22,216 nucleotides of DNA from a virus. Taxonomy: Duplodnaviria > Heunggongvirae > Uroviricota > Caudoviricetes. Of the stretch, positions 4,214-5,952 are shown piece after piece; position 1 is the first letter of the stretch; every line of letters starts with the position of its first letter. The DNA is taken from IMG/VR virus record IMGVR_UViG_2681813161_000004; one strand, given 5' to 3'. The position numbers were made by a program, and so were the translations under genes. Under the pieces are notes generated by a model. The model saw only the letters and a program-made list of their open reading frames with translations, ran no database searches and was not told the DNA's origin.

Positions 4214-4894
4214 TACTCAACGTCAAACGCCCGAATTGAAGCCAAATCATCCAGACCGCTCAGCTCCTCTTTCATTTCACGCTGACGGCGATAAATCTCA
4301 TCGTTGCGATCGACCTGCGCCTGCACCATTGCTGCCGCCAGTTCTTCCAGTTCCGGCATCGACAGTTTCACCTGCTGATTATCCGCATCGCTCCACACCA
4401 TATGTGTTTGTGCCGCGACAGATTTTGCCAGCATGACTACCGGGGACAGGCGGCCCAGTGAGTCGGGACCAGCATTCCAGATACGACCGTTCCATTCAAA
4501 CGTGAACGGCTTCGCCTCCTGTTCTGCGCGCCATGCTTCAATTTCCTGACGTCTGGCCTCTCTGGCCGCTTCCAGCATTTCTGGTGTCACAGTGAATGGG
4601 GCTATCTCACCCCATTTGCCGCTTTGCAGTTCCTGCCAGATTTGCTGACCCGTCGGAGCGACATCATCAGCGGTGGCTGTGTAGGGGAGTACTGGGCACT
4701 GAAATCCCCACCGGTCCCAGTCGTGAGCCTCTGTATGACTGCCCCCTGACAAGTCTGATGACTTTATCACCGTCAGCTTCTCCCTGGTACGCAGCAATAA
4801 TCAGCCCGCCAATGTCAGGGGCTCCCCATCTGTTGCGGACAGAGCTCGCCACGATTCTGTAAATAATATCTTCTGTGGTTATATTTATTTTCAC
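4213..4894 (-). pseudogene. Phage tail-fibre-associated protein (possible tail fibre chaperone), apparently frameshifted near a five-C run (plus 4743-4747); GTG start overlapping the stf stop
   Basis: Protein-like frame A from 4894 (GTG) ...KINITTEDIIYRIVASSVRNRWGAPDIGGLIIAAYQGEADGDKVI switches to protein-like frame B ...SHTEAHDWDRWGFQCPVLPY...EAKPFTFEWNGRIWNAGPDSL...-stop at 4213; each frame is junk on the other side of the G-run. Family assignment by position only. Confidence 0.4.
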
Positions 4895-5952
4895 CCAGTC
4901 AGTCTGGATATGGGCCAGTAGCAGTAGCGGGGGTGATAAATGGGGCCGTTAATGCCGTAAAAAGTAAGGGATTTGGCTCTGTACCGCGGTTCTGTTGTCT
5001 CAGGGCGTGCATCAGTCCACCGGATGCTGAGCACCCCTTCAAACCGTGTGTCGGGTATGATGATGTCGTAGGGGCCAGCAACGGAATATTCACCTGGCAG
5101 CGCATTCCTTACCCAGGCCAGGAAATCACTCTTAGTGTCAAAACGGATAACATCTTCAGGCAGAAAAGCACACCCAAAGCCGAATGCGCCAGGTATCGCC
5201 AGACGGCCTTTTGTCCGGTCGTAAATGTCGCTCTGTGCTTCCATCGTGGCCGCACTTTTCAGCCCCAGATTATCCCGGGACTTCTGTTGTGCCTTTTCGC
5301 CTGCTGCTGCGATTTCTGACAGATGGTTAGCCATTTTCAGAGTGCCGGTCAGCGCAGCATCAATGTCATTTTTGGCCTGTTCTGCTGCGCGGGCATAACC
5401 TGCGGCATCCTGTGCGCTCTGTCCGGCTGCGGCTGCATTTGCTCCTGTGCTTGTCACATCTTCCGCAGTGGCCTTTCTGTCCTCAGCTGTGACGGTTGCA
5501 TCCTGTCTGGCATTCTCCGCAAAACGTTGTGCATCATCACGGGCCGTTGCGGCTGCCGCCACATCCTGCGCCGTCTGCTGTGCGTTTCCGGCTGCGGCCC
5601 CGGCGCTCTGCTGCGCCTGCACCACCATTTCCTCAAAGCGCTTCATCACCTCCGGACGTAAATCACCATCCTTTGGTGCATTCAGAAACGCGTTCAGTGT
5701 CCCCGGTGCATCAGTCGGTGCCACATCAATATCCCCGACACGGGTTGGCTGCCAGCCGTTACAGTGAAGCGCAACCTCGTAATACCCCGGCTCAGCCTCA
5801 ATCACATAAGCACCGTTATTGTCCGTCACGCAAGTGGCAACAACGTGTGCCACAACGGTCGGACTGGTTCTTCTGGCCCGCAGTTCAATCGCACAATTTA
5901 CGACAGGTTTACCCGCCCCATCTTTCAGTACACCTGAAATCTTTACTGCCAT
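4891..5952 (-). CDS. stf: Side tail fibre protein (lambda Stf-like N-terminus, Ala/Gln-rich middle, divergent C-terminal domain)
   Basis: Starts MAVKISGVLKDGAGKPVVNCAIELRARRTSPTVV..., close to the lambda Stf N-terminus (MAVKISGVLKDG...) from recall; RBS GGGGTGA upstream. The ORF-track extension to 5994 runs through the lom terminator hairpin and is rejected. Confidence 0.8.
   Translation of the reverse strand: MAVKISGVLKDGAGKPVVNCAIELRARRTSPTVVAHVVATCVTDNNGAYVIEAEPGYYEVALHCNGWQPTRVGDIDVAPTDAPGTLNAFLNAPKDGDLRPEVMKRFEEMVVQAQQSAGAAAGNAQQTAQDVAAAATARDDAQRFAENARQDATVTAEDRKATAEDVTSTGANAAAAGQSAQDAAGYARAAEQAKNDIDAALTGTLKMANHLSEIAAAGEKAQQKSRDNLGLKSAATMEAQSDIYDRTKGRLAIPGAFGFGCAFLPEDVIRFDTKSDFLAWVRNALPGEYSVAGPYDIIIPDTRFEGVLSIRWTDARPETTEPRYRAKSLTFYGINGPIYHPRYCYWPISRLTG

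Follow-up and report, generated by a model that had tools for sequence, protein, structure and literature searches.

The short side-tail-fibre frame beside ipaH is very likely the 5' part of a decayed fibre gene

The reading frame at 4891–5952 on the minus strand of the 22,216-nucleotide stretch of DNA analysed here (the window) comprises 353 codons and a stop, and we conclude that it very likely represents the 5' part of a side-tail-fibre gene that has decayed within a defective lambdoid prophage of the Shigella/enteroinvasive Escherichia coli (EIEC) type. A first-pass annotation, made from the letters of the window, had read it as a short side tail fibre that may have a distinct tip. That reading does not survive comparison with the intact orthologues, which are 421–474 amino acids long; the window copy has been cut by a 4-bp frameshift and has suffered a further 246-bp deletion. 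The features on which the argument depends are these:

2283–4034, plus strand: intact ipaH (LRR and NEL E3 ligase, 583 aa), which points towards the fibre module and occupies the cargo position past the fibre genes.
4213–4685, minus strand: 3' remnant of a DUF4376 gene, 97% identical to residues 50–207 of the intact 207-aa EIEC protein.
4684–4687, minus strand: junction of the 246-bp deletion, with C-run microhomology; the fibre gene loses its last 48 codons and the DUF4376 gene its first ~50.
4686–4894, minus strand: out-of-frame remnant of the distal domain D2, VKINITTEDIIYRIV...GISVPSTP, which runs for 69 codons without a stop and belongs to the mechanical ORF 4667–4894.
4891–4893, minus strand: premature TGA resulting from the frameshift.
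4891–5952, minus strand: truncated side-tail-fibre (stf-like) ORF, 353 codons and premature TGA, corresponding to PHROG 2636 positions 1–442 of 568.
4894–5277, minus strand: conserved hinge (NLGLKSAATM...DRT.GRLA.PGAFGFG) and knob-like domain D1, about residues 226–353.
4897–4904, minus strand: frameshift site, where the window reads GACTGACT and the intact EIEC orthologue GACTGACTGACT, 4 bp of a tetranucleotide repeat having been lost.
5278–5559, minus strand: Ala/Gln-rich stretch, about residues 132–225, seen in the sequence and differing in length between alleles.
5560–5952, minus strand: PfN anchor domain, residues 1–131 (PF08400 / CarboxypepD_reg-like), Pfam score 163.3 bits against a cut-off of 26.6.
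5964–5988, minus strand: intrinsic-terminator-like hairpin, GCCCGC...GCGGGC then TTTTT, read off the sequence between lom and the fibre start codon.
6016–6615, minus strand: lom (Ail/Lom outer-membrane protein), directly upstream of the fibre ORF, as in lambda.

The assignment of the gene to the side tail fibres is straightforward. Translation gives a product that begins MAVKISGVLKDG... and closes with ...YCYWPISRLTG before the stop, as had been reported. An exact match was found in a 15-billion-protein collection for neither the 353-aa nor the 367-aa product of the window. The minus-strand gene order is H, M, L, I, J, lom and then the fibre ORF, with J-lom-fibre arranged in the same way in EIEC CFSAN029787, and this place downstream of J and lom is that of the Stf family in the lambdoid tail module. 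Together with the PF08400 match (163 bits over residues 1–131), the location bears out both the gene identity and the conserved Stf N-terminus that were originally proposed. The ATG at 5952 is likely the true start, since the PF08400 profile begins at this Met and the alternative ATG, which is in frame at 5994, is immediately 5' to the lom terminator stem. Over residues 1–110, the protein is about 55% identical to Stf of lambda-like and Stx phages (tblastn), and a PDB sequence search matched residues 3–90 of the homologue P0019 to a lambda-type 'Tail fiber protein' chain (9e7m). In lambda-type phages, it is through the anchor domain that a side fibre is joined to the tail tip.

The lambda Stf/Tfa pair shares with the window a fibre gene placed after J and lom, a PF08400 anchor and a fibre-maturation gene directly downstream. 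However, the similarity of the two fibres ends at about residue 110–130, and among the records listed most of those from lambda-like and Stx phages match residues 1–110 only (tblastn), so the earlier statement that the C-terminal part differs from the lambda Stf tip holds. The window fibre has instead a short Ala-rich shaft and a distal region of the hinge-D1-D2 type (PHROG 2636), and the downstream gene encodes a DUF4376 protein (PF14301) rather than one of the Tfa type; both genes are broken in the window. A parallel for the proximal half is found in the collagen-like fibres EPclA–D of EHEC prophages (PfN-PCoil-Col-PfC; Ghosh et al. 2012, PMC3368898), which likewise begin with PfN (PF08400) followed by an Ala-rich stretch. 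In EPclA, the PCoil region is a trimeric α-helical coiled coil of allele-variable length (PMC3368898), and by analogy the Ala/Gln-rich stretch, present after the anchor just as first described, is probably a trimeric coiled-coil shaft. Past this point the two part company: where EPcl proteins have collagen and PfC, the window fibre has its hinge-D1-D2 distal part, and neither the window protein nor its intact homologues gave a Pfam match at E ≤ 1 to Gly-X-Y collagen repeats (PF01391) or to PfC (PF06820).

The C-terminal region had been called an unrecognised domain, and this is only half true. The whole window protein matches PHROG 2636 ('tail fiber protein') with E = 6.8e-164, and a search with the C-terminal 126 residues alone, the check that had been proposed, still matches positions 318–442 with E = 5.2e-51; homologues of the region number in the hundreds in E. 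coli, Shigella, Salmonella and Citrobacter, and the D1-D2 module family forms 119 clusters at 50% identity. On the other hand, when the ORF and intact homologues were scanned against Pfam and NCBIfam, nothing was found besides the N-terminal anchor, with no match past residue 131. Nor did sequence searches of the PDB give a credible match for the C-terminal part, whether the query was a full-length homologue or a 21-sequence C-terminal profile (the top hits, antibody and PII chains at E ≥ 0.1, are chance). Our literature search found no paper on the hinge-D1-D2 tip family itself, only work on PfN/PCoil and on DUF4376 chaperones. The module is carried by lambdoid (siphovirus-type) and P2-like (myovirus-type) prophages alike.

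AlphaFold2 models the C-terminal region of the intact protein as two β-rich domains; when this two-domain model was compared with the PDB by Foldseek, there was no match at E ≤ 0.001. For D1, a domain of about 95 residues, the fold matches are to solved knob domains (S. aureus phage phi812 RBP 9euf, phage K gp144 5m9f, T4 gp34 5nxh, R2 pyocin fibre 6cl6/6cu2 and Mu S 8ju3); the likeness is tentative, at 5–20% sequence identity, with no detectable sequence homology and with a monomer prediction set against trimer chains, and may or may not reflect common ancestry. D2 occupies PHROG 2636 positions 445–567, ends in GLF[IV]R and is probably, by analogy, the receptor-binding end of the intact fibre. 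The window ORF ends at position 442 of 568 and has no complete in-frame D2. Its stop sits just ahead of the nearly invariant Trp of D1, such that the window copy lacks the last β-strand even of this domain. What had been taken for the fibre tip is thus the hinge and D1 minus its last strand, the distal domain having been lost.

Comparison with intact orthologues locates the damage precisely. Full-length family members extend about 118 residues past the window's stop; those of Shigella and E. coli read on as ...ISRLT[G/D]WVKINITTEDIIYRIV...GLFIRTS, the continuation past the stop being ...ISRLT[G/D]WVKINITT...GLFIRTS. The Shigella/EIEC orthologues (annotated 'prophage tail fiber N-terminal domain-containing protein'; for example, WP_046880233.1 and the 467-aa P0019 of S. 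sonnei) have the same J-lom-fibre-DUF4376-ipaH neighbourhood as the window but neither the 4-bp frameshift nor the 246-bp deletion, and do not stop at profile position 442 of 568. In EIEC CFSAN029787, the fibre is encoded by a single 470-aa ORF (WP_046880233.1), with a 207-aa DUF4376 gene and ipaH next in order. Aligned with this strain from lom through the fibre gene to the DUF4376 gene, the window is about 98.8% identical at the DNA level and shows the 4-bp loss and the 246-bp deletion. The first lesion reduces (GACT)3 to (GACT)2 at 4897–4904 and shifts the frame into the TGA. The junctions of the two lesions read ...CCAGACTGACTGGGTG... and ...CAGTACTCCCCTACACAGCC.... Nine complete E. coli genomes contain 80% or more of the region, and in all nine it spans about 2848 bp, as against 2601 bp in the window, which, judged by span, fits the absence of both lesions from those genomes. 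The frameshift is not a sequencing error, since it is also present in GCA_002950115.1, an independent 4.27-Mb chromosome that has no 246-bp deletion, and the database proteins P0004 and P0014 have the same ...ISRLTG ending. The D2 remnant has acquired no further stops and the remaining window sequence is 98–99% identical to intact alleles, so the lesions are recent; we use the word decay on the basis of two events only.

The deletion has also reached the neighbouring gene. The DUF4376 remnant, which still scores 62 bits against PF14301, has lost residues 1–49 along with its own start and ribosome-binding site, and the ORF 4213–4797 of the program-made list is a chimera of this remnant and out-of-frame fibre sequence. 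The arrangement, a fibre gene followed directly by one for a protein of about 200 residues with a C-terminal DUF4376, is that of gp26/gp27 in Alteromonas phage V22, where gp27 has been shown to be a tail-fibre chaperone (PMC7289586), without which the fibre does not become binding-competent and which is absent from the mature fibre (PMC7289586; PMC10579305). By analogy, the enterobacterial DUF4376 protein is probably a tail-fibre chaperone as well. The window gene differs from that of V22 in being 5'-truncated.

We suggest the following account. The intact protein, of about 467 residues, comprises the PF08400 anchor, an Ala-rich shaft, the hinge (NLGL...PGAFGFG), a knob-like α/β D1 and a β-rich D2 ending in GLF[IV]R, and its folding probably needs the DUF4376 protein encoded directly downstream. 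Loss of one GACT unit from (GACT)3 shifted the frame at codon 353/354 into the TGA, and a separate 246-bp deletion then took away the last part of the fibre gene together with the first part of its chaperone gene. What the window is predicted to encode is the anchor, the shaft and an incomplete D1. This 353-aa product would have neither a distal domain nor a chaperone and, judged from its sequence, is very probably non-functional; of course, it may retain some residual role or have gained a new one. The prophage is degraded beyond the fibre gene: an IS3-family element stands in place of the last 11 codons of J, and the prophage holds two IS1 copies and one IS66-family element. We note that damage here extends to the fibre gene, the chaperone gene and the 3' terminus of J, while the ipaH cargo is intact.

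The best of the other explanations is that the unusual C-terminus arose by a module swap accompanying the acquisition of ipaH, which we consider very unlikely. Fibre genes are certainly mosaic, with three different N-terminal anchors sharing a near-identical hinge-D1-D2 (P0019, P0058 and the window type), and the window-type allele does adjoin ipaH in EIEC and Shigella genomes. Their co-occurrence is, however, explained by a shared prophage lineage. The D1-D2 module with its DUF4376 partner also occurs without ipaH, in a P2-like prophage beside hya hydrogenase genes (P0096, a 474-aa E. coli protein), and the spread of the family over so many clusters also speaks against the proposed link. Effector genes located after the tail-fibre genes are a known and common pattern in lambdoid prophages (PMC3530523); ipaH occupies this usual cargo slot, past the fibre and chaperone genes, so its position is explicable without a swap. 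E. coli PSS-15, considered as a further ipaH-free example of the module, was rejected, as the fibre tip there is unrelated.

Still less probable is a side tail fibre that is short by nature and yet functional, with a distinct receptor-binding tip made up of its last ~110 residues. In favour of it, the frame stays open through 353 codons from a start in good context, and the C-terminal region is conserved and has a predicted fold known from receptor-binding proteins. However, every full-length family member is longer, the missing continuation is still in the window, out of frame, and the stop is the product of a 4-bp repeat contraction; the frame also ends short of the nearly invariant Trp and the last strand of D1, and the chaperone gene next to it is 5'-truncated.

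An enzymatic tip (depolymerase, esterase or lysin), also raised by the first-pass annotation, is hardly credible. D1 aligns to only 73–85 residues of tailspikes of 575–587 residues, and the same fold matches non-enzymatic fibres equally (T4 gp34, R2 pyocin fibre, Mu S and phage K gp144), that is, fibre knob domains. The domain has no invariant Asp, Glu, His, Ser or Cys; the Cys to which attention had been drawn is Arg, His, Lys and other residues in relatives, and the Pfam, NCBIfam and PDB sequence searches gave no enzyme match. Equally remote is the idea that the (GACT)n run serves phase variation or programmed frameshifting, such that full-length fibre could still be made: the lesion is indeed a one-unit change in a short tetranucleotide repeat and recurs in a second genome, but the two or three units present are far too few for the efficient slippage of contingency loci, some intact alleles read ...RLTGW... 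with no GACT repeat at all, and even in the restored frame the last 48 codons would be missing, as would the beginning of the chaperone gene.

The decayed-gene reading makes the locus itself an ordinary finding, a broken copy, and any novelty lies in the family to which it belongs. It is possible, and we say so tentatively, that enterobacterial prophages have in the intact hinge-D1-D2 region and its DUF4376 partner a module for receptor recognition whose structure is uncharacterised and whose D2 might be folded in a new way. In annotation, the locus ought to be entered as a tail-fibre pseudogene carrying a frameshift and a deletion, with an adjoining 5'-truncated chaperone gene; the label of a short fibre bearing a novel tip should be avoided. 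As a pseudogene it adds to the picture of the ipaH-bearing prophages of Shigella and EIEC as immobilised remnants. The hinge-D1-D2 and DUF4376 family is common in the prophages of E. coli and Shigella and is a candidate for the cataloguing or engineering of side-fibre tips.

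The translated fibre ORF agrees exactly with the sequences quoted in the first-pass annotation, whose observations on the sequence are confirmed. Upstream of it, the minus strand carries only a lambda-type tail module, and the features of the neighbourhood are as follows.

1-698 and 1213-1910, minus strand: two IS1 copies beyond ipaH, with InsB-type 167-aa ORFs, each overlapped by a 91-aa ORF
2283-4034, plus strand: intact ipaH, 583 aa (LRR_TTSS and NEL E3 ligase), in convergent orientation to the broken fibre module
4213-4797: DUF4376-domain ORF, downstream of the fibre ORF
4891-5952, minus strand: fibre ORF, 353 codons, then TGA
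5964-5988, minus strand: terminator-like hairpin (GCCCGC...GCGGGC, then TTTTT) between lom and the fibre start codon
6016-6615, minus strand: lom
6724-7984, minus strand: IS3-family element between J and lom; orfA of 100 aa, orfB of 272 aa with an rve domain
7980-11429, minus strand: J
Upstream of J, minus strand: lambda-type tail genes (tube, tape measure, M, L, I)
19567-21956, plus strand: IS66-family element with ORFs of 139 aa, 116 aa (TnpB-like) and 530 aa (DDE transposase)

The prophage is a heavily damaged one of the kind that carries chromosomal ipaH in Shigella and enteroinvasive E. coli (EIEC). The IS3-family element has inserted at the extreme 3' end of J, where ...VVVR* stands in place of the final 11 codons seen in the EIEC orthologue (...VVVMKKATAGITIS), and therefore the C-terminus of the central tail-fibre protein is also altered. 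The first IS1 copy reaches the window edge, and the IS66-family element lies upstream of the tail genes on the opposite strand.

Residues 1-131 of the fibre score 163 bits with PF08400 (‘Prophage tail fibre N-terminal’; cut-off 26.6); Pfam gave no family beyond residue 131 and an NCBIfam scan of the ORF gave no meaningful match. We regard Met 5952 as the probable start codon, since the Pfam profile begins there and the hairpin stem lies downstream of an in-frame ATG at 5994, which sits just 5' of it. This ATG is used as the fibre start in some annotations, and the hairpin resembles terminators annotated at the same position in lambda-like phages, for example, mEp460.

The ORF had been read as a short side tail fibre; we conclude instead that it is a pseudogene fragment, because intact relatives are longer and two lesions are present. 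Hundreds of relatives, from Shigella, E. coli, Salmonella and Citrobacter, came out of a search of 5.8 billion proteins; the family is already catalogued as PHROG 2636 and, in RefSeq, as ‘prophage tail fiber N-terminal domain-containing protein’. Full-length members have 421-474 aa or more, none ends at the stop of the window ORF, and they run on as ...YCYWPISRLT[G/D]WVKINITTEDIIYRIVASSVRNRWG...PGLFIRTS, with 230-253 residues from the conserved NLGL motif to the C-terminus versus 126 in the window. From lom through the DUF4376 gene (2.6 kb), identity to EIEC strain CFSAN029787 is 98.8%; in that strain one 470-aa ORF encodes the fibre, and a 207-aa DUF4376 gene and ipaH come after it, in that order.

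Alignment with CFSAN029787 locates both lesions. In the first, CCAGACTGACTGACTGGGTG (EIEC) becomes CCAGACTGACTGGGTG (window): one GACT unit is missing at 4897-4904, and the resulting frameshift ends the ORF in GGG TGA, at 4891-4893. The second, a 246-bp deletion with its junction within a C-run at ~4684-4687, costs the fibre its final 48 codons (TGTYIAS...GLFIRTS) and the DUF4376 gene its first ~50. Between them, 69 codons of the fibre distal domain remain readable in the shifted frame (ORF 4667-4894, VKINITT...VPSTP). In the DUF4376 remnant, which has lost its own start, identity to residues 50-207 of the intact protein is 97%; the mechanically listed 194-aa DUF4376 ORF is a chimera. The frameshift is real, and an assembly error is ruled out as its cause, because an independent 4.27-Mb chromosome (GCA_002950115.1) shares it without the 246-bp deletion and database proteins ending ...ISRLTG exist (P0004 and P0014). 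Every one of the nine complete E. coli genomes with 80% or more of the region has it at ~2848 bp, versus 2601 bp in the window, which fits the absence of both lesions from those genomes.

That the gene carries a distal module unlike that of lambda is borne out. The C-terminal region belongs to a catalogued family: its last 126 residues alone match PHROG 2636 (‘tail fiber protein’, 568 positions) at positions 318-442 (E = 5e-51), the N-terminal part of the fibre matches the same family, and the missing stretch corresponds to positions 445-567. No solved structure was found for the distal region by sequence, with either a full-length homologue or a profile (A1) of 21 intact distal regions; only the N-terminal anchor matched, to lambda-type tail-fibre chains. 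Among 1.84 billion representatives, A1 matched 119 clusters at 50% identity (77 at E < 1e-30), nearly all C-terminally in proteins of 350-1034 aa, some with the first domain (D1) repeated two or three times or alone. The conserved hinge and D1 occur two or three times in tandem before the distal domain (D2) in P0108, P0111 and P0118 (599 aa) and in P0121-P0123 (755-1034 aa); in other homologues, such as P0116, D1 precedes an unrelated C-terminal region. D1 behaves as a repeatable shaft module. The residual novelty is confined to the family's distal module, for which there is no Pfam model, no solved structure and no known receptor.

Alleles that are otherwise near-identical (P0004, P0005, P0006 and P0010) differ in the Ala/Gln-rich shaft (window ~5278-5559), where in-frame deletions have taken out tens of residues, probably by recombination between internal repeats. 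A small compound indel in D1 (window ~5080-5090; AGPYDIIIPD versus AGRLGIIPD in the EIEC allele) counts as allelic variation, not damage, because both forms occur among intact homologues.

For the intact 243-aa distal region, AlphaFold2 models (pLDDT 74 overall), which are single-chain although the protein is presumably trimeric, place a disordered hinge before a confident D1 (fragment residues ~36-130, pLDDT 85-93), then a linker helix of low confidence and a beta-rich D2 (~157-241, pLDDT ~80). The window ORF breaks off at fragment residue 125. A nearly invariant Trp and the last D1 strand come directly after this point, and the ORF's product is therefore left with an incomplete D1 and without D2. 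What had been proposed as the tip is, on this model, a knob-like domain without its last strand and not the tip of the fibre. Structural matches to D1 were phi812 RBP (score 8.0), a second phi812 baseplate chain (7.8), phage K gp144 (6.7), two Acinetobacter tailspikes (6.6 each), Pa193 gp47 (6.4), phi11 RBP (6.2), T4 gp34 (6.1), R2 pyocin fibre (5.6) and NF5 RBP (5.6), at only 5-20% identity, so that homology is not established; Foldseek with the two-domain model gave no significant match. We take this fold to be the small ‘knob’ domain decorating many fibre shafts. An enzymatic tip finds no support: D1 has no invariant Asp, Glu, His, Ser or Cys, and the Cys singled out earlier is Arg, His, Lys or another residue in relatives.

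In the intact fibre, the PF08400 domain would anchor the protein at the tail tip in the manner of lambda Stf, and the Ala-rich stretch would form a trimeric coiled-coil shaft. We liken this stretch to PCoil of EHEC prophage fibres, a trimeric coiled coil whose length varies among alleles, in fibres where PfN-PCoil is a trimer (PMC3368898). Hinge, D1 and D2 would make the distal end, where D2 is probably the part that meets the receptor. A role as folding chaperone is probable for the DUF4376 protein, by analogy with Alteromonas phage V22, in which gp27 is needed for a binding-competent gp26 fibre and is absent from the mature fibre (PMC7289586; PMC10579305). With D2 and the chaperone start gone, no functional fibre is expected from the window product.

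A module swap tied to ipaH acquisition had also been suggested, and the wider family does not support it. Alleles with different anchors (MAVKISG..., MPQLKGV... and MSVVISG...) have nearly identical distal regions, and anchor/distal recombination is therefore common in the family. In E. coli, P0096 (474 aa) carries D1-D2 and, with a DUF4376 gene, closes a P2-like tail module (sheath, tube, gpU, gpX, gpD) that adjoins hya hydrogenase genes, with no ipaH there. The distal module is therefore not specific to ipaH prophages. At that locus (E. coli GCA_033991995.1, locus positions 5001-6996), the PF08400 fibre and its DUF4376 gene thus belong to a contractile-tail, not lambdoid, module; the fibre-chaperone cassette, including its ‘lambda-type’ anchor, is therefore common to different tail types. 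In a lambdoid E. coli prophage, J-lom-fibre-DUF4376 directly abuts potB, but the fibre tip differs. The ipaH counterpart in CFSAN029787 is annotated as frameshifted (‘ipaHe’), so the state is reversed: there the fibre is intact and the effector broken, and in the window the fibre is broken and the effector intact. Lambdoid prophages are well known to carry effector genes close to the prophage end, beyond the genes for tail fibres (PMC3530523), and ipaH in the window simply occupies this post-fibre cargo slot.
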